Source of the DNA: a virus
Lineage: Duplodnaviria; Caudoviricetes
Reading direction: 5' to 3' (one strand)
IMG/VR virus record: IMGVR_UViG_3300001598_000036
Location: 1-64,000 of that record
DNA: 64,000 bases
A program made the position numbers and the translations under genes. Shown piece by piece: positions 171 to 57,343 of this stretch. How positions within the stretch are numbered: the stretch's first letter is position 1; each line of letters begins with the position of its first letter. The notes beneath the pieces were generated by a model, which saw nothing but the letters and a program-made list of their open reading frames with translations, had not been told where the DNA came from and made no database searches.

Positions 171-395
171 ATCCATCGTATATCGGCGATAGGCGATGCC
201 GCCGGGCCGACAACTTTAACGCATTAGAACTTTAACGCACTAAAGCGCCCGCGCCGGCGCGACAACTTTAATACTTTAATGTAGTAAAGTGAAACGCCCG
301 GCCACTATACTTTAGTACTTTACTAGACTAAAGCGAAGGATCCGGCTCGCGTACTTTAGTACTTTAACGCACTAAAGTCTATAGACCGGCGCCCG

Positions 396-409
396 CGAAC
401 ATATGTTCG
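396..409. promoter_or_regulatory. LexA (SOS/Cheo) box
   Basis: CGAACATATGTTCG matches the Firmicutes consensus CGAACRNRYGTTCG. Confidence 0.75.
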
Positions 410-457
410 CCTGACCAAATAAAAAAGAGAACAAACTTTCGTTTGTTCTCCGTTGGA

Positions 458-685
458 CTACTTGGTAAATTCTACCACTTTGAGTCCATCTTTGAAGAAG
501 TAGGCAACTGTTCTTGCCTTCTCAATGTCATCAAGTGTGATAACTTCGCCTGTTGTACTGTCCATTACAGTATCAACTCCTGCGGAATGCATTTTCAGTA
601 CAAGCACTGTCAAGTCTGTATAGACTTCGTGCGTTGCGTCTGAATTAGTGATAACTCTTGAAGCGTTAATTTTTTCTACTCTCAT
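458..685 (-). CDS. hypothetical early protein
   Basis: ORF with AGAGAGG RBS and a downstream terminator hairpin (425-450). Confidence 0.75.
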   Translation of the reverse strand: MRVEKINASRVITNSDATHEVYTDLTVLVLKMHSAGVDTVMDSTTGEVITLDDIEKARTVAYFFKDGLKVVEFTK

Positions 686-739
686 ATTATTACCTCTCTT
701 TCTTTTATCTGTATATATAGTATCATATTGCGAGTACCA

Positions 740-1090
740 TTAAAGGTACTCAGCAAATGAAACTGTATATTCTTTTCTAACTTTGAAAGTGAATTCTTTT
801 GGAAGTTCATCACATAAGAATCTGTCATTTCTAACATACTTTCCTATGTTCATTTCTTTCAACATTTCTCTTACTTCATCTTCAATTCTTAATGTTGTGT
901 ACTTTGAAAGTGGAATTGCGAACACATAATTAAATTTTGTTGTACCTATTGGATAATTTGGTGTGTTCAAATATTTTTTATTATGTTCCTTTTTTCTTCT
1001 TTCTAAATTGTTTGTTGTTCCAATTTTTACTACGAATCTTCCCAAACATTCACGATACCAACCTACATAGAAATATTCTTTTGCTTTCAT
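740..1090 (-). CDS. GIY-YIG/T5orf172-like protein
   Basis: YFYVG...VKIGTTNNLERRKKEHN...E motif pattern. Confidence 0.55.
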   Translation of the reverse strand: MKAKEYFYVGWYRECLGRFVVKIGTTNNLERRKKEHNKKYLNTPNYPIGTTKFNYVFAIPLSKYTTLRIEDEVREMLKEMNIGKYVRNDRFLCDELPKEFTFKVRKEYTVSFAEYL

Positions 1091-1128
1091 TTTTCTGTCC
1101 TTTCTTTCTTTAACTTAACTTATAACTA

Positions 1129-1158
1129 ATTATACACCCAACGGAATATCTCTGTCAA
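1129..1158 (-). promoter_or_regulatory. sigma70/sigmaA-type early promoter
   Basis: TTGACA-18-TATAAT on the minus strand. Confidence 0.8.
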
Positions 1159-1318
1159 TATTTTTTTTGAAAAAAACATAAGAAAAACAATTCTTTAATG
1201 CTTTAACGCAATAAAGCGCGCCACCGGACGATCCACTTTCGTACTTTAATGCATTGAAGTGCGACCGCCGGCCCGCGCACTTTAACGCAGTAAAGCGTTG
1301 AAGCGACAAGGGCGGCCG

Positions 1319-1332
1319 CGAACATATGTTCG
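1319..1332. promoter_or_regulatory. LexA (SOS/Cheo) box
   Basis: CGAACATATGTTCG, perfect consensus. Confidence 0.75.
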
Positions 1333-1373
1333 ACCAAGAAGAGCGAGGAGAACAATCGTTCTCCTCTGTATAT

Positions 1374-1730
1374 TTATTCATTCTTATGAATATTTTTTTC
1401 TTTCTCTCTCCTTTCTTTATCTTTGGCAATTTTTGCCATTTTTTTCTCTTTGGCAATTTTTGCCTTTTCTTCTTTTTCTTTACACTTCATAGAATATTCT
1501 TCTGCAAGTGCATAAGCATCATAAGGCTCTGTACCTTTGTTACTTCCTGTTGGAATGGAAATCTTTACCACTACGAAATCTTCGTTTCCCTCTCTGTCAA
1601 GAATTGGAAATGCAATTTCGTTTGACTTAACACGAAGAACATCATCTTCAGTGTTGGAAAGAAATTCCATAAACTTGGAAACATATTCCATTTTAACTTC
1701 TTCTCTTAATGCTTTTCTTGATACTGTCAT
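1374..1730 (-). CDS. hypothetical early protein with Lys/Glu-rich C-terminus
   Basis: ORF with RBS, an upstream TTGATT-17-TACAAT promoter and a downstream hairpin. Confidence 0.75.
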   Translation of the reverse strand: MTVSRKALREEVKMEYVSKFMEFLSNTEDDVLRVKSNEIAFPILDREGNEDFVVVKISIPTGSNKGTEPYDAYALAEEYSMKCKEKEEKAKIAKEKKMAKIAKDKERREKEKNIHKNE

Positions 1731-1816
1731 AATTTGTACCTTTTTTAACCTTTCTTTTTTTCTTTATTGTAGCATATATTTATTAACTAATCAAGCATTA
1801 GTTTGCTTTCTTTTGA

Positions 1817-1927
1817 TTACTTTTTTGCTAAAGTTTCCTGCGACTTTAACCATAACAATGACTTGAAAAACTGTTTATTATTGGTAGTATATATCTTTCC
1901 TTTGTACTCAATTACGAACATAATCAT
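1817..1927 (-). CDS. small hypothetical protein (36 aa)
   Basis: MIMFVIEYKGK...LAKK* with the same AGAGAGGTA RBS as neighbouring genes. Confidence 0.55.
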   Translation of the reverse strand: MIMFVIEYKGKIYTTNNKQFFKSLLWLKSQETLAKK

Positions 1928-2133
1928 TACCTCTCTTTCCTTTTCTGTACCTATATAATAACAAGTCTACTGTCCTATTAAACGGACTCTGCGGCGACCA
2001 TCAAAAATTTTTTGAAACTTTAACGCTTTAACGTACTAAAGCGCGGCCGACGCATAAACTTTAACGCTTTAGTGTGTTGAAGCGGAACGACCGGCCGCGC
2101 CACTTTAGTACGTTAAAGCGTGAAAGTGTAAAA

Positions 2134-2149
2134 TGTTTCACGTGAAACA
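2134..2149. promoter_or_regulatory. parS site (ParB/Spo0J binding)
   Basis: TGTTTCACGTGAAACA, the perfect 16-bp parS consensus. Confidence 0.8.
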
Positions 2150-2203
2150 TTAACGAACGACTACCAATTTTTGGTAGTCGTTCTATAAGAAAGAAAGAAA
2201 AGG

Positions 2204-2713
2204 TTAATTTCCATTTTTTTCCTTTGATTCTATTGCATAATACTTGATGGAAAAATTATCCAAAATTGAAGTTATCATTTCTGATTCTTTCTTATCGTTG
2301 GAAAATATTTGAAGTGTGTATAATTCATTTTCTACAACAACATTATATACTAACTTTACATTTGCATTTTTAAGAAGTGCAACAACATTTTCCATTTTTT
2401 TACTATTTACTTTTGCAGTAGCATTATATATCCATAATCTATCTTTTTGCATTTTTTCCTCAATAAACTTAATTGAGAAAACACCAACGAAGTTGACAAA
2501 TGCTACTGCAAAACATTTGGTAATAAGTGGTAAATCGCAAGTTGCTGTCAATACAATGATTACTGTATAAAAGCCAAAACAAATTGCATTTGTTATACTT
2601 GCTAACCATTTGCCACCTTTAATAGTAACTAATGATTTAACAGTATTTAACAGTACATTTACGAAATTAACTCCCATAAAAATCCAAAACATTGAAGTGG
2701 TAAAAATTGTCAT
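2204..2713 (-). CDS. membrane protein, DUF5698/UPF0316-like
   Basis: Three hydrophobic N-terminal segments followed by a soluble C-terminal domain. Confidence 0.55.
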   Translation of the reverse strand: MTIFTTSMFWIFMGVNFVNVLLNTVKSLVTIKGGKWLASITNAICFGFYTVIIVLTATCDLPLITKCFAVAFVNFVGVFSIKFIEEKMQKDRLWIYNATAKVNSKKMENVVALLKNANVKLVYNVVVENELYTLQIFSNDKKESEMITSILDNFSIKYYAIESKEKNGN

Positions 2714-3001
2714 AAGTCTTAATCCTCTCTTTCTTATTTTCTATATATAGTATAAACTATATACTGTCCTATAAAACGGACTCAACAATTATTTTTTTCT
2801 TTTTCTTTCTTATCTCTGTATATAGAATACACTATTTTTAATAATAAGTCAAGTTCTTTTTTTCGTACAATCCTTTGACGCTTTAATTCGTTAAAGCGCG
2901 GCGGCCGGGCAGTACACTTTAACGCTTTAGCAGAATGAAGTATGCGGCCGGACCATTCACTTTAGTACTTTAACGTGTTGAAGCGGAAGGACCGGCGGCC
3001 G

Positions 3002-3015
3002 CGAACGTATGTTCG
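3002..3015. promoter_or_regulatory. LexA (SOS/Cheo) box
   Basis: CGAACGTATGTTCG matches the consensus. Confidence 0.75.
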
Positions 3016-3023
3016 TCTACGAA

Positions 3024-3039
3024 TGTTTCACGTGAAACA
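3024..3039. promoter_or_regulatory. parS site
   Basis: TGTTTCACGTGAAACA, perfect consensus. Confidence 0.8.
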
Positions 3040-3055
3040 TTTTCGTTGTGACACT

Positions 3056-3694
3056 TTACCAAAGTAAAGTGTCACAATTTCCATTTTCTGCCAAGCAAGA
3101 AAGTAAAATCTGATACTCAATCTCGCAATCTTCTAAAGCAGTATGACTTTCTATAAAATCATTGTTAAAAAGATAACGATATACTATTTCGGCAGTATGT
3201 CTACATTTACCATATTTTGTAAGATAGTCATTATCTATACAAAACTGTTTGTAGTCATCATTACTCTTAAAAGTATCTCTTGCAAGTTTTAATATATCGT
3301 GGAACTGTGTTCCATACTTAAAGAAATATCTATATTTTGAATCTGTGATATATCTCTGTGTAGTACCTAAAGCAAAAGCATCAAATCTACAATTAAAAGC
3401 AAATACTTTTGTTATATTATACTGTTCCATAACATCACGAAGAATAAATTTGATAGTATTAAAACTTCTTAACTTTCTACTACCATTTTTTATATCTTCC
3501 CAATACATAGGAATCTTTTCGGCAAAATAAGCATTTGCCATCATATCTTCCCAAAGAAAAATATCCTTTACTGTAAATGAATCTTTGTGGAAAATGTTTC
3601 CATTAAAATCTGCTACAAGATAACCTATATCATATACAAGTGCATCATCTAAAGTGTTTGTTGTTTCTGTGTCAATTACTAAAATCTTTTCCAT
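3056..3694 (-). CDS. DEDDh 3'-5' exonuclease
   Basis: ExoI VIDTETT, ExoII FNCRFD, ExoIII HTALEDC. Confidence 0.85.
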   Translation of the reverse strand: MEKILVIDTETTNTLDDALVYDIGYLVADFNGNIFHKDSFTVKDIFLWEDMMANAYFAEKIPMYWEDIKNGSRKLRSFNTIKFILRDVMEQYNITKVFAFNCRFDAFALGTTQRYITDSKYRYFFKYGTQFHDILKLARDTFKSNDDYKQFCIDNDYLTKYGKCRHTAEIVYRYLFNNDFIESHTALEDCEIEYQILLSCLAENGNCDTLLW

Positions 3695-3738
3695 AATTTT
3701 CCTACTTTCTTTTTTTAACTTTCTTTAACTTATAATTA

Positions 3739-3768
3739 ATTATACACCTAAATCATATTTATTGTCAA
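3739..3768 (-). promoter_or_regulatory. sigma70-type early promoter
   Basis: TTGACA-18-TATAAT. Confidence 0.8.
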
Positions 3769-3972
3769 GCATTATTTTATAAATAATTATGTTTTTTTAC
3801 AAATACAATCCTTTCTTACTTTAACGTAGTGAAGCGGCTGCACCGGACGTAAGACTTTAACACTTTAATGTAGTAAAGCGCCCAGTCCGGCGGCGCCACT
3901 TTAGCCAATTAAAGTGTTAAAGCGTGAAAGCAAAAGAAAAGAGATGGAAGATACTTCCATCTCTCTATGCAA

Positions 3973-4317
3973 CTACTGTGCCAACTTGTAAGCCTTGAGT
4001 GTACCCTTTGACTTAACCTTGACATCAGCGACAGTCAAGATTCCATTATCTACCAACTGTCTACAAAGTGCAGTACACTTCTGTGTTGAAATCTCAACAC
4101 TTTCGGCAATAGCCTTGCAAAGAGTCAAGTCTTTGCCTTCAAGGAACTTTACAATATTTTCCTTGATTGGCTCATTCTCAAGAGCCTTCTTTGAGATTGA
4201 ATTCTTTCTTCTCTCGTTACGAGCATTCAACTTTTCAATCTCGTGCTTGGCAAATTCTACCATTTCTTCGTTTTCAACATTTGCGATAACCATTTCCATA
4301 AATTCTCTGTTAGTCAT
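3973..4317 (-). CDS. winged helix-turn-helix DNA-binding protein
   Basis: Start at MTNREF after an AAGGTA RBS. C-terminal IAESVEISTQKCTALCRQLVDNGIL fits a wHTH pattern. Confidence 0.6.
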   Translation of the reverse strand: MTNREFMEMVIANVENEEMVEFAKHEIEKLNARNERRKNSISKKALENEPIKENIVKFLEGKDLTLCKAIAESVEISTQKCTALCRQLVDNGILTVADVKVKSKGTLKAYKLAQ

Positions 4318-4371
4318 TTTAATTACCTTTCTTTGAGTCTTACTCAACTAACCTTGTTTAACTTATAATTT

Positions 4372-4400
4372 ATTATAGCATTTAATCTCTAATCTGTCAA
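4372..4400 (-). promoter_or_regulatory. sigma70-type early promoter
   Basis: TTGACA-17-TATAAT with TGn extended -10. Confidence 0.85.
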
Positions 4401-4422
4401 CCCCCTTTTAAACTTTTTTTAA

Positions 4423-4515
4423 TTATTTTTCAAATAACCAATAGCCACAAAGAATAGCAATTCCAAGATATGCCAATATTGACGCTGTTCTAATAATGAT
4501 TGTAAGTACTAACAT
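4423..4515 (-). CDS. small membrane peptide (30 aa)
   Basis: MLVLTIIIRTASILAYLGIAILCGYWLFEK, with an AAGGAG RBS and its own TTGACA-17-TAATAT promoter (4549-4577). Confidence 0.55.
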   Translation of the reverse strand: MLVLTIIIRTASILAYLGIAILCGYWLFEK

Positions 4516-4739
4516 TTGATTTTCTCCTTTCTGTCTTTCTGTAATTATATATTAACACAACTGAAACCCTATGTCAACAACTATTTGAATAAAAACATAA
4601 GAAATACAATCCTTTCGCACTTTAGCACGCTAAAGCGCGGGCGCCGGATCGTCTACTTCACTACACTAAAGCGTTGAAGCGGCGCGGCCGGCGCCAAGAC
4701 TTTAACACAGTAAAGCACTAAAGTCTAACCACCGGCCGC

Positions 4740-4770
4740 CCACTACATATAGTGGTACTATATGTAGTGG
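4740..4770. promoter_or_regulatory. two adjacent NrdR-box-like sites
   Basis: CCACTACATATAGTGG and GTACTATATGTAGTGG fit acaCwAtATaTwGtg. Together they form an inverted repeat without a U-tract. Confidence 0.5.
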
Positions 4771-4776
4771 TTAGTC

Positions 4777-5223
4777 TTATGCGTTAAGCACTCTCAATAT
4801 CTCAATGATGTTATCAACATCGTATGCAGTACCTAACCAATTATCTCTATTTGGCTTTTCATCATCAAACAGAATTCCGTTTGGCTCATTGACAACACTT
4901 GCCTTTGGTGTACCATACTCTACAATATGTATTTCATCAAACTGTACACTTGCAAGATGTCTGTTAAGCCAACCTCTCTTTGCGTTGGTTACTCTCATAC
5001 CATATTCATCTGTACCATTCTTTGCTAACCAACTAACAATTCCGATTGTATAACCTTTAGTTTGTAATCTGTTAAGAAGTCTTGCAAGGTTAGACATTCT
5101 AACCATTGTCTTTGCTTGTTCGTATGGTCTTGTATTCTCGTTGATGATATCATCAAGCCAAGTTTCAATTCCGTAAAGGTTTGCGATTGTTCCGTCCATA
5201 TCGAAGTAGATTGCTTTAGTCAT
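4777..5223 (-). CDS. HAD-superfamily phosphatase (5'(3')-nucleotidase-like)
   Basis: Motif I FDMDGT, motif II S, K and motif IV LFDD. Confidence 0.75.
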   Translation of the reverse strand: MTKAIYFDMDGTIANLYGIETWLDDIINENTRPYEQAKTMVRMSNLARLLNRLQTKGYTIGIVSWLAKNGTDEYGMRVTNAKRGWLNRHLASVQFDEIHIVEYGTPKASVVNEPNGILFDDEKPNRDNWLGTAYDVDNIIEILRVLNA

Positions 5224-5468
5224 TTTGAGTTACCTCTCTTTCTTTCTTTCTATAATGAGTATAGCACATAATAGAATTGATTGCAACCCTTTTTTGAATA
5301 AAAACATAAGAAATACAATCCTTCTCCACTTCACCGTAGTGAAGCGGCGCGACCGAACCAACCACTCTATCCCTTTAACATACTAAAGCATACGGCGCGA
5401 AGACTTTAATACTTTACTACATTAAAGCGTTGAAGCGGACATACGGCGCAAATGAAAAAGAATGTTAG

Positions 5469-5633
5469 TTAGACTAACATTCCTCTCTGTTCGCATTCTT
5501 CTTTAACTGCAACGAAGTAAGCATATTTATTCTTTTCGCCAATAAAGATTTCTTTTCCGAACTCATTATTATAAATGTTCTTTAACTGTTTAAGTGTCAT
5601 CTTCCATAATTTCTGTGTAGTGTAAGTCTTCAT
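5469..5633 (-). CDS. small hypothetical protein (54 aa)
   Basis: MKTYTTQKLWK...GMLV* with RBS and a TTGACA-17-TAATAT promoter (5667-5695). Confidence 0.65.
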   Translation of the reverse strand: MKTYTTQKLWKMTLKQLKNIYNNEFGKEIFIGEKNKYAYFVAVKEECEQRGMLV

Positions 5634-6058
5634 TATATATTACCTCTCTTTCCTTTCTGTAATTATATATTACCATAGACGGCGCGAAGTGTCAATATAT
5701 AATTAAAGAAAAACATAAGAAATACAATTCTTTTTTACTTTAACGCGTTGAAGCGGGCTATTATATAACACTATACCACATAGAAAAATCGCGTCCTATA
5801 ATATTATATTAGGCGCGTGAAAAATTTTTCCCTATATATAAATAAGAGCCACTTCATCTTGATGAAGCGGCTCGTCGTTGAAGCGGCGCCGAGGTCTGAG
5901 GTCGCGCCGAGGTCAGAGGTCCGGGGTTATTTCAGGAATTTGCTTTAACGCTTTAGCGCGTGAAATTGCCGCTGCAAACAACGGACCACGAACTAAATTT
6001 TTGAAATTAGTATTTAATTTTTTGACTTATATATAGAATATTTTTAGGAGGTACTATT

Positions 6059-53457: not shown

Positions 53458-55515
53458 ATGATAGGAAGAACAAACGCAGGAGGAAATGCAGCAAATACTA
53501 TTACTAGTATAATTATTACAACTCCTCCTACTAAAACAGTCTATAATGCTGGAGAAACAGTTGATTTAACTGGTATTATAGTAAAAGCAAATTGAAAAGA
53601 TGGCTCGCAAGAAACTATAACAAATTCTTGCACTTTTAATCCAGCTAGTGGTACAGTTATTTATGAAACAACTACTTCTATTGATATTTCATACTATGAT
53701 AAAATTACAGGAGTAACATTTAGAGCTTCACAAGATATTACTGTAAATAGAATACCTAATTCATTAGTAATTGTTTCAGAACCCACTAAAACTGAATACG
53801 AAGCTGGAGAAACTTTAGATTTAACAGGATTAATAGTAAAAATAATATACAACTCAGGAGCAGAAAATACTACAAGTAATTATACAACAAGTCCTGCAGG
53901 AGGAAGTGAATTAACAGGCGGTACAAGTAGCGTTTTAGTTAGTTATACAGAAAATAGTATTACAGTAAGTAATAGTTTTAATATTACTGTAAATATTGGT
54001 ATAGCTTTATGGAGTGATCCAAATGCTACAACAGCTGATTTATTAGCTACCATCGCAAAAGCAGAAAGTGGAAAAATTGATTTGTCTACTTATTGAAGTA
54101 TTGGTGATACGAGAACAGTTACACTTCCGGCGATTTCGACTACTTCGGGTACTTATGATGGTATTAATTGAAGTGTTGGAGAGACTCATACTTCGCAAAA
54201 AATTGATTTAGTATTGATGGATTACTTGCCTAATGGATTTAGTATTGATGGTTATAAACCATTGTATGTAGTAGGAATGAAAGATTCATTAGCTACTAAG
54301 GGATATATGAATTCATCAGACACTAATACTGGTGGTTGAAATTCTTCTAAACGTAGAGGATGATGTAATCAAGCATTTAAAACTGCTATTGATTCTGTAT
54401 TATCTGGAATTTTTAAACAGTTTAGTTGACAAACTGGTATTGGTGGAGGGGCATCTTCTGGATTGCAGAATGCTTGTAGTGATTATTTTGGGTTAACGCC
54501 AGAAAAATGTATATTTGGTTCTAGGAGTTATTCTATTACCGATGAAGCGAACTTATTTAATCAATGAGAATATTATACTACTTCATCAAATAGGATTAAA
54601 AAATTAGGTAAAACTGGTTCCACTACCAGTTGGTGAGAGTGTTCTCCTTCTTCAGGGAACTCCGACCGTTTCTGTTATGTCGACTACAACGGTTCCGCCT
54701 ACGGTTACATTGCGAGCGGTGCTAGTGGCTTAGCGCCTTTCGGCTGTATCGGCAAATCTACTACGATTGCTCCAAAATCATTCGCAAGTGCTACTGACGC
54801 AGAAATCACTGCGATGGTCGCCGCCCATGACGCTGGCCAAATCGATTTAACAGAAATTTGAAGCGTTGGTGACCAACGTACAGTTCAACTTTCTGCTATG
54901 ACAGCTACTGGCGTTGGAGAATCGCATGTAGCACAAAGTCAGACATTGGTGTTGATGGATTCTACATGTGATGGATTTACGATTACAGGAACGAATAAGA
55001 AACCAACTTTTATTGTTGGATTGAAGAATTTTTTAGCGAAGGGAACTAGTGAAGAATATGGATATATGAATTCAACCGATACTAATACTGGAGGATGAAA
55101 TTCTTGCGCTAGAAGAACTTGGTGTAATAATGTGTTTAAAAATGCTTTACCAAGTGCATTATTACCAGCATTTAAACAATTTACTTGGCAAATAGGTAGA
55201 GGTGGAGGAGCTACTTCTGGATTAATATCTTCTGATGATTATTTTGCTTTACCTCCGGGAAAAGCAATATTTGGTAGTACAACCCATTATGCTCAAACTG
55301 ATGAAGATAATTTATTTAATCAATGAGAATATTATACTACTAGTGCTAATAGAAAAAAATATCCAGGAGACAGTAGTACTTCCGCTGACTATTGGTGAGA
55401 GTGTTCTCCTTGTTCAGGGGACTCCTACGGTTTCTGTTATGTCGCCTACACCGGTGGCGCCGACTATTACTATGCGAGCGATACTAGTGGCTTAGCGCCT
55501 TTCGGCTGTATCTAA
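53458..55515 (+). CDS. DGR target receptor-binding protein: 2 Ig-like and 2 CLec-like domains (TGA=Trp)
   Basis: Two duplicated domains (WS.GD.RTV..GYMNS.DTNTGGW..WWECSP..GLAPFGCI), each ending in a variable repeat. Confidence 0.85.
54619..54750 (+). repeat. DGR variable repeat VR1
   Basis: Homologous to VR2 and TR, with differences at codon positions 1-2. Confidence 0.88.
55381..55512 (+). repeat. DGR variable repeat VR2
   Basis: At the 3' end of the target gene; shares its IMH-like end and downstream AAATCTACT with VR1. Confidence 0.9.
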
Positions 55516-55588
55516 AATCTACTAAATCTACTTATACGTAGAAAATAAATTCGTTATAACTTATTAAAAAGCAATATAAATCTAAATT

Positions 55589-56014
55589 ATGACTGTACCT
55601 ACATATAAAAGATCTGTTTCTCCAGCCCAATTTATAGAAGAAACACGACAATTAAATATACGATTAGGACAAATTATTATGAATTATCCTACAAAATATA
55701 GACAAAATTATGGTGATTTTTTAATTAAATCAGCTTTAAAGGCATTACAATTACTTCAAAGCGCTAATAAAATATTTATAACTAAAGAATTACCAAAAGA
55801 ATTAAAATTAATACGTTATAAAAAAATCATAGAAGCAGAGGGGATAATAGAGAATATTTCCTCTAGCTTTTCAATTTATGCAGGCCTTCTATCTAATAAA
55901 GATGGAATTAATAGAGAGAAATTAGCTAATCAAGAAGTAGAAATAGGAACACAATGTTTTAATATTATAAATCTTCTCGATGGCTTACAAAAAAGTGATA
56001 AAAAATATCACTAA
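55589..56014 (+). CDS. avd: DGR accessory protein Avd
   Basis: Basic helical 141-aa protein (MTVP..KRS...YP.KYR...SAN.I) between the target gene and TR. Confidence 0.75.
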   Translation: MTVPTYKRSVSPAQFIEETRQLNIRLGQIIMNYPTKYRQNYGDFLIKSALKALQLLQSANKIFITKELPKELKLIRYKKIIEAEGIIENISSSFSIYAGLLSNKDGINREKLANQEVEIGTQCFNIINLLDGLQKSDKKYH

Positions 56015-56031
56015 AGGTTATTTACTGCTAA

Positions 56032-56160
56032 ATCGCTAGCGTTTGGTGAGAGTGTTCTCCTTGTTCAGGGTACTCCTACGATTTCTGTTATGTCACCTAC
56101 AACGGTGACGCCTACACTATCAGTGCGAGCTATACTAGTGGCTTAGCGCCTTTCGGATGT
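56032..56160 (+). ncRNA. DGR template repeat position (TR), atypically depleted of AAY codons
   Basis: Non-coding third copy between avd and RT with a divergent IMH*-like 3' end (GGATGTAAA versus GGCTGTATC). Confidence 0.75.
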
Positions 56161-56311
56161 AAAATGTAGGTAGAAGAGTAGTATATATGAAATTATACCA
56201 TTAAAAATAATTAAAAATATTTTTATATTTTACAGGAGTGAATAAACCCAGTATTTATACTAAATTAGATTCATGATTTATATTGCTTTAACGTCAATTA
56301 TAAATATACAC

Positions 56312-57343
56312 ATGATGACTCAACCAACTTTTGAAGAAGTATTTACTCCATCTCATTTAATGGAGGCCGCGCATAAATGTTGTAATAACGTTAGATGAAA
56401 ACGTTCTACACAATTATTTGAATTAAATCAATCTATTGAAATTGCTAAACTATATAAAGAATTAATGAATGGAACATATATTTCTAAAGGATTTAATAAA
56501 TTTAGTATTATTGAAAGAGGTAAAAAACGTAATATTCAAGCAGTTCATATTACTGAACGAGTTGTTCAAAAATGTTTATGTACTTATTTTTTAAGACCTC
56601 TATTAGAACCAAAATTAATTATTGCAAATGCAGCTAGTTTACCTGGAAAAGGAACTGATTATAGTATTAATAGATTAAAAAAAGATTTAATTTCACATTA
56701 TAGAAAATATGGAAGAGAAGGCGGTATTTTATTATTAGATTATAAAGATTTTTTTAATTCTATTCCTCATATAAAAATTTTAAATATGTTAAAATATATG
56801 ATAGAAGATGAAAAAATTTTTGATTTAACTTCTAATTTTGTAACTGCTTTTAAAGGAGAGAAAGGATTAGGATTAGGTAGTGAAGTATCACAAATGTTAG
56901 CCATTTATTATCCTAATATTATAGATCATTATATTAAAGAACATTTATATATTAAAGGATATGGTAGATATATGGATGATAGTTATTTAATACATCAAGA
57001 TTTAAATTATTTAAAATATTGTTACAAAAAAATTTATAATTTAAATCAAGATTTACAATTATCAATGCATAAATGTAAAATAGTTAAATTTAATCAATAT
57101 TTTACTTTTTTAAAGAAAAAGTTTTTTATAACCAAAACAGGAAAAATTATTATAAATATAAAACGTCAAAATATTACACATCATAGAAATAAATTAAAAA
57201 AATTATATAAAAAAAGAGTAAATCCTATTCATTCCCATCAAGCGTGAAAAGGATATGCTTTAAATTACAATAGTTACAATACTGTACAAAAAATGGATTT
57301 ATTATATAATAATCTATTTACAGAGGAGGGAAAAAATGACTAA
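56312..57343 (+). CDS. DGR reverse transcriptase (TGA=Trp)
   Basis: ERGKKR, LLLDY.DFF.SI.H, GLGLGSEVSQ (DGR-type SQ), RYMDD, FTFL; 343 aa. Confidence 0.92.

Follow-up and report, generated by a model that had tools for sequence, protein, structure and literature searches.

Results

Organization of the DGR cassette

The stretch of DNA analysed here (the window) comprises the first 64 kb of a phage record of 126,454 nt that is rated complete in IMG/VR. The phage genome has a G+C content of 31%, and TGA is read as Trp (code 4). A cassette at positions 53458–57343 on the plus strand carries a target gene, an ORF in the avd position, the template copy (TR), a spacer and an RT gene, which is the canonical DGR order.

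The DGR target gene (53458–55515, +) is an ORF of 685 aa under code 4 with 12 in-frame TGA codons. It encodes two Ig-like Big_3 domains (Pfam, E=3e-9) followed by two tandem DUF6273-type variable domains (Pfam DUF6273 on two stretches, E=9e-15), each of which ends in its own VR. The gene is internally duplicated with a period of 759–762 nt and 72–78% identity, and its product is a single receptor-binding-type protein with two tandem diversified domains. VR1 (54619–54747, +) forms the end of the first variable domain and VR2 (55381–55509, +) the C-terminus of the protein, both in register with TR. Because VR1 is internal to the target gene, its homing signal lies within coding sequence. A short motif, AAATCTACTA, was observed 3' of the shared end in both VR1 and VR2 and was absent after TR. 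The conserved Trp-Trp of the repeats is spelled TGG-TGA.

The probable avd gene (55589–56014, +; 141 aa, no TGA codons) occupies the canonical place between the target gene and TR. Pfam returned nothing for its product, and the PHROG match to 'Avd protein of DGR' was weak (E=0.0035). TR itself (56032–56160, +) is non-coding and contains 1 AAC among 17 NNY codons. A stop codon at 56029–56031 closes the VR reading frame, so TR is not a coding third VR, in agreement with the earlier note, which had described a non-coding copy upstream of the RT gene. The IMH*/IMH marker (56155–56157, +) reads GGA in TR and GGC in the VRs (54742–54744 and 55504–55506); TR/VR homology stops a few bases 3' of this marker and the flanks then diverge. 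The spacer between TR and the RT gene (56161–56311, +) is AT-rich and about 150 nt long and presumably provides the priming portion of the template RNA. The TR-spacer RNA gave no significant fold (z = -1.1) and no Rfam match, and no hairpin or cruciform 3' of VR1, VR2 or TR folded better than shuffled sequences.

The DGR-type RT gene (56312–57343, +) contains two in-frame TGA codons and was assigned by Pfam (RVT_1) and PHROG (RT, E=2e-66). Its catalytic motifs are intact, the invariant GLGLGSE..Q and Y.DD columns of its clade being kept. We found 1694 homologues, the best at 56% identity. The IMG/VR loci numbered 503, and those sampled are DGRs. A single tblastn hit across the whole 126,454-nt record showed that it is the only RT in the genome. 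The locus has an RT of the DGR clade, a TR/VR pair beside the RT gene and a difference between IMH and IMH*; the marker and the divergent flanks behind it match the arrangement that gives DGRs their directionality, a function that is putative here. The three repeats have a G+C content of 49–53%, compared with 31% for the genome and 22–26% for the RT and avd genes, and by composition the TR/VR sequence seems either foreign or under strong constraint.

Comparison of TR with VR1 and VR2

DGRs are described as strictly one-way systems, in which an invariant template serves variable targets. Exactly three copies of the repeat were found, both in the window and in the entire 126,454-nt record. We recounted the mismatches across positions 56032–56154, with the marker end left out. 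TR differed from VR1 at 23 sites, where the template base was A at 8, G at 7, T at 6 and C at 2 (15 non-A), and from VR2 at 19 sites, where it was A at 9, T at 6, G at 3 and C at 1 (10 non-A). The recount reproduced exactly the numbers that the earlier note had obtained by hand alignment. DGR mismatches are essentially confined to template adenines, a large majority usually being required in surveys, and the DGR template is invariant and AAY-rich; here TR had adenine at only 8/23 and 9/19 of the mismatches and is neither. If the inferred AAY-rich ancestor (see below) is taken as the template instead, the mismatches are confined to adenines.

The pairwise distances among the three copies were 23, 19 and 20. 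The 27 variable sites all fell at positions 1–2 of 17 NNY codons, with third codon positions free of variation (chance ~2e-5), while the remaining 96 sites had the same base in TR, VR1 and VR2. The earlier note had thus placed the differences correctly at codon positions 1 and 2 and had rightly seen a single AAY codon left in TR, an AAC; it had also named the right kind of codon, NNY, with a count of about 18 that became 17 on recount. At the first and second positions of these codons, TR keeps 15/34 adenines (44%), the replacements being G at 7, T at 8 and C at 4. TR bases other than adenine differed from at least one VR at 16 sites, and such mismatches extended to the last variable codons of both VR1 and VR2. 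Exact shared blocks of 20 nt and 22 nt flank the variable core in all three copies. The constant sites were alike in both VRs (96/96), compared with 72–78% identity in the surrounding duplicated domains, and VR1 and VR2 bear the sequence signature of targets that were active in the past.

At the first codon (56032–56034), TR differs, VR1 and VR2 share the same Ser codon, and relatives have a constant Ser. This codon may belong to the 5' boundary or fall immediately beyond it; leaving it out gives 21 mismatches (14 non-A) against VR1 and 17 (9 non-A) against VR2, and the overall pattern stays the same.

Homologous templates and control loci

Eight homologous TRs were drawn from loci L008–L015 and L036, whose RTs are 40–53% identical to that of the window. 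These TRs aligned codon for codon, from a Trp-Trp-Glu start to a Pro-Phe-Gly-Cys end. At the 17 codons that are variable in the window, they carried AAY in 8/8 at nine codons and in 3–7/8 at five; the remaining variable codons were single-adenine or adenine-free (ACN, AGC, TCN, GCN). The same loci have VR domains that are also codon-aligned with those of the window, the same avd-TR-RT order and the GGA/GGC marker. Unlike the window TR, their TRs hold 10–17 AAY codons and show A-only mismatches to their VRs; the loci use the standard code and are GC-richer than the window. The difference between GGA in TR and GGC in VR recurred in 8/8 homologous DGRs, which bears out the IMH*-like end proposed in the earlier note. 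The same note had suggested comparison with the TRs of related phages, and it was this comparison, with AAY-rich templates there and an AAY-poor one here, that supported its two further proposals, an AAY-rich ancestry of all three copies and a mutagenised TR. The ancestral template, as judged from relatives whose RTs are only that similar, would have carried AAY at most of the codons now variable in the window.

To place these counts among related elements, we used 80 IMG/VR loci with RTs 38–53% identical to that of the window, in which TR/VR pairs were called by one script; 55 pairs of at least 100 nt made up the control set. Control mismatches fell at template adenines in 756/797 cases (95%) and at other bases in 41/797 (~5%). 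Against this ~5% rate, the non-A counts of the window had binomial probabilities of ~1e-14 (15/23) and ~1e-8 (10/19). The number of AAY codons per control TR ranged from 4 to 17 with a median of 10, compared with 1 in the window TR. One round of mutagenesis in this RT clade left a VR that differed from its own TR at 52% of adenines, with replacements in the order G>T>C; an adenine mutation density of ~50% has been reported for Bacteroides DGRs (PMC11601372).

The dependence on sequence context was assessed on 53 distinct control pairs and the codon spectrum on 51 gap-free pairs (loci L006–L084). Template adenines before G were changed in control VRs in 8% of cases (5/63), compared with 48–58% in other contexts, and TGY (Cys) occurred at AAY positions of control VRs in 1/514 cases, where ~36 were expected; these biases may reflect either the RT's context preference or selection. 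In the window, TR and the VRs alike have kept seven adenines at constant positions (P ~0.003 under uniform mutability). As a sign of VR-type selection this retention is void, since five of the seven precede G, the context that changes in only 8% of cases. Neither these adenines nor the Tyr/Cys codon spectrum, which covers 17 codons only, gave an imprint of VR-type selection that could be made out in TR.

Of the 372 DGRs surveyed by Wu et al. 2018, 23% had non-A-to-N differences between TR and VR, up to 11 in a single target; the authors explained them by infidelity of the RT, errors of integration or mutations acquired later (PMC5758913). The DGRs of that survey share with the window non-A mismatches in an otherwise complete DGR. 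Their maximum of 11 compares with 15 and 10 in the window, all at positions 1–2 of AAY-homologous codons, and, unlike in those cases, the altered partner can be identified in the window as TR (PMC5758913).

Search for another template

The earlier note had raised the possibility that the true template lies elsewhere and had suggested looking for an AAC-rich fourth copy. No fourth copy of the repeat was present in the complete 126,454-nt genome. A search of IMG/VR at the protein level and with two DNA patterns yielded neither a fourth copy nor a sister phage, only chance GC-rich hits. JGI metagenome contigs contained no match to the constant blocks and no sister phage, a single 44%-identical fragment being recovered, and 185,579 species genomes gave no match to the constant blocks. 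A template elsewhere therefore found no support in the complete genome or in the three public collections, and the AAC-rich copy was not found in any of them.

Smaller template erosion in related phages

Template polymorphism was analysed in one well-sampled related family with 18 distinct TRs, using flanks of 1.2 kb for comparison. Consensus-adenine TR columns were polymorphic in 13/24 cases, compared with 35/234 flank adenines (Fisher P=4e-5) and 17/104 columns of other TR bases (P=3e-4), so that TR adenine columns were 3–4 times more polymorphic than flank adenines of the same family. Most TR variants in this family were private A-to-N changes, and some were adjacent doubles within a codon. 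An identical TR variant occurred in L059 and L063, which come from two different metagenomes, and this argues for heritable variants.

Two relatives showed larger changes. The L061 TR (about 3170–3300, upstream of the RT match at 3599) holds 4 AAY codons, the fewest among the controls. The L061 VR was explained by the TR of its sister phage L047 in 11/11 cases and by its own TR in 7/14, and the two TRs differed at 10 sites, 8 of them at adenines. On these sequence comparisons, L061 makes a strong case for a second eroded template. The L078 TR (about 4070–4200, about 430–300 nt upstream of the RT match at 4501) matches its own VR exactly over the 3' half, where eight adenines stand unmutated, and carries the VR-type GGC, not GGA, at the IMH marker. 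Its sequence appears to be direct evidence of VR-to-TR transfer, or of chimeric assembly. The VR-type marker base would make this TR a homing target.

Proposed overwriting of the window template

From the pattern of the three copies, its rarity, their AAY-rich ancestry and the absence of another template from the genome, we infer a single overwrite event in which an adenine-mutagenised copy of the AAY-rich ancestral template would have replaced TR once, from end to end. VR1 and VR2 would be older, independent products of the same ancestral template that have not been rewritten since. Overwriting by a mutagenised copy, one of the readings put forward in the earlier note, gave the best fit to the star-like distances, the one-round adenine retention and the 96 unchanged sites. 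The pairwise distances of 23, 19 and 20 indicate three independent draws, with TR copied from neither resident VR. The 44% adenine retention, set beside the 52% of adenines mutated per round in the clade, makes TR resemble a one-round product, and zero change at 96 constant sites points to a burst and not to drift or stepwise adaptive loss. Neither VR was rewritten with the present TR as template, since non-A mismatches occur right up to the final variable codons; partial rewriting of a VR from the present TR by a 3'-anchored tract was rejected on the same ground. This evidence comes from one metagenome assembly of one phage.

The overwrite would reduce the coding repertoire at the 17 codons from ~1e20 to ~1e9. 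With 15 adenines left at variable positions, the element can still diversify, and the DGR, intact-looking by its sequence, is probably weakened and not dead.

We favour mis-targeted retrohoming, or self-homing of cDNA, as the route, at a probability of roughly 40%. Mutagenised cDNA made from TR RNA would integrate into TR DNA instead of into a VR, which is the simplest account of an independent draw with one-round statistics. IMH dictates directionality in the Bordetella DGR (PMC5703328), and the window TR has kept an IMH*-type base and its 3' flank diverges, two features that should be protective in that paradigm; self-homing therefore requires a breach of the IMH/IMH* barrier.

A doubtful but still serious competitor to self-homing is VR-to-TR gene conversion, a route that the earlier note had not set apart. 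Homologous recombination would have copied a diversified VR allele into TR, with a conversion tract that stopped within the constant 22 nt preceding the IMH* marker. Both routes yield the same product, a mutagenised template. The identical blocks of 20 nt and 22 nt around the core could support such recombination, and L078, whose TR matches its own VR in the 3' half, shows a transfer of this direction. The internal erosion patches in the TRs of L069 and L078 also spare many 3' adenines, which is unlike a 3'-anchored cDNA tract. However, the window TR matches neither VR (15 and 10 non-A differences, star-like distances), so the donor must be a third allele, either a VR allele of a co-replicating genome or one since lost. 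In addition, the IMH* marker was not co-converted.

An assembly artefact, in which the true TR is AAY-rich and a VR haplotype has been threaded into the TR context, is unlikely. The record was indeed assembled from a metagenome in which the phage population was presumably diversifying, exact blocks of 20 nt and 22 nt are common to the three copies, and a related family with longer shared blocks also has odd TRs. Yet the shared blocks are shorter than the k-mers usual in final assemblies, and coverage would be highest along the path of the true TR. The mutated codons at 56035–56043 directly adjoin TR-unique sequence, which leaves no shared sequence for an assembler switch on the 5' side. The TR-specific GGA and 3' flank are intact, and ~130 nt, within one read length, joins both unique flanks across the core.

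It is improbable to much the same degree that the latest writing of both VRs was done in trans, by the AAY-rich TR of a co-circulating close relative or by another template outside the genome, while the resident TR had been adenine-poor for longer. DGR components can act in trans (Wu et al. 2018, PMC5758913), but the complete genome holds no fourth copy or second RT, and the constant blocks were unmatched in IMG/VR, the JGI metagenome contigs and the 185,579 species genomes. Such a template must also match every one of the 96 constant sites, and the resident TR would then once more be an eroded form of that template.

Gradual loss of adenines by point mutation, fixed by selection to lock adapted residues, follows a model of Regnier et al. 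2026 (bioRxiv 10.64898/2026.02.18.706561) and is very improbable here. Theory predicts TR adenine loss in stable environments (bioRxiv 10.64898/2026.02.18.706561), and single A-to-N TR variants do occur among near-identical phages. Against this, the window would need ~19 adenine substitutions with 0/96 elsewhere and no intervening VR rewrite, and the bases that would have been locked correspond to neither VR: at 16 sites a non-A base of TR is different from that in VR1, VR2 or both. The relatives moreover have adjacent double changes within codons, which are typical of cDNA-type events.

Relaxed RT specificity, by which bases other than adenine would be mutated, was also offered in the earlier note and recalls the RT infidelity that Wu et al. 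2018 proposed for non-A-to-N differences (PMC5758913), but it was rejected because 0/96 constant-block or third-position sites vary, variation is restricted to AAY-homologous codons, and the RT is intact and belongs to a clade with 95% A-specific mismatches.

Comparison with the BPP-1 DGR

The BPP-1 DGR (mtd-VR/IMH, avd, TR/IMH*, brt) has the same order of parts as the window, in which the avd gene is a probable one. Both have a 3' VR, a non-coding TR just upstream of the RT gene and a difference between IMH and IMH*, and the template design is AAY-based in both, as inferred for the window from its relatives. Unlike BPP-1, the window has a target gene with two VRs, one for each of the tandem variable domains, and uses code 4, with TGA inside the RT gene, the target gene and the repeats. 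Its IMH/IMH* contrast starts with a single A/C difference, and no significant hairpin lies 3' of either VR. The chief difference is that the window TR is not the invariant parent of its VRs.

The closest precedent for a mutagenised TR is an engineered one. Doulatov et al. 2004 (Nature) reportedly swapped IMH* for IMH in BPP-1 and obtained an adenine-mutagenised TR. The outcome is the same as in the window, and the one-way rule can fail. The two cases differ in that the BPP-1 swap was engineered, while the window TR keeps an IMH*-type base and divergent flank, so that the barrier would have been breached with no obvious change. In contrast to the window, the relative L078 has the VR-type base in its TR.

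Implications for template stability

The window DGR, recognized as such by its parts and its relatives even though its TR is not AAY-rich and its mismatches are not confined to TR adenines, is probably a natural instance of template overwrite. No description of natural TR self-mutagenesis was found in the open literature. A natural template that bears a full round of mutagenesis indicates that the one-way barrier can fail, and the smaller hits in relatives point the same way as the window TR. In current theory, the template changes only by ordinary slow mutation (bioRxiv 10.64898/2026.02.18.706561).

Tentatively, and with somewhat less than even confidence, we suggest that DGR directionality is intrinsically leaky, that the adenine mutagenesis of the element recurrently hits its template through both self-homing and VR-to-TR conversion, and that erosion is a general ageing process of DGRs. 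If this is true, the window would represent a complete one-step overwrite and the relatives partial ones, and template erosion would limit the lifespan of DGRs and must be countered by selection. If general, the process would give DGRs a built-in decay route and account for some of the non-A-to-N mismatches that are dropped from surveys or put down to an unfaithful RT. It would also call for caution in detection pipelines that demand A-biased mismatches and in engineered DGR mutagenesis, where template stability matters. The overwrite rate can be measured by deep sequencing of TRs under constitutive DGR activity.

Other repeats in the window

Intergenic arrays with a 44-nt period were observed at positions 190–5760, ahead of several short minus-strand genes. 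In each 44-nt unit a GC-rich, CCGGC-type segment comes after a short inverted repeat (CTTTA..TAAAG), and the arrays gave no Rfam or tRNA match. At positions 1–170, which form the left end of the record, a palindromic TGGAAAAAATTTCCA-like motif is present in five copies with a 38-nt period, and these repeats are possibly terminal or packaging-related iterons.
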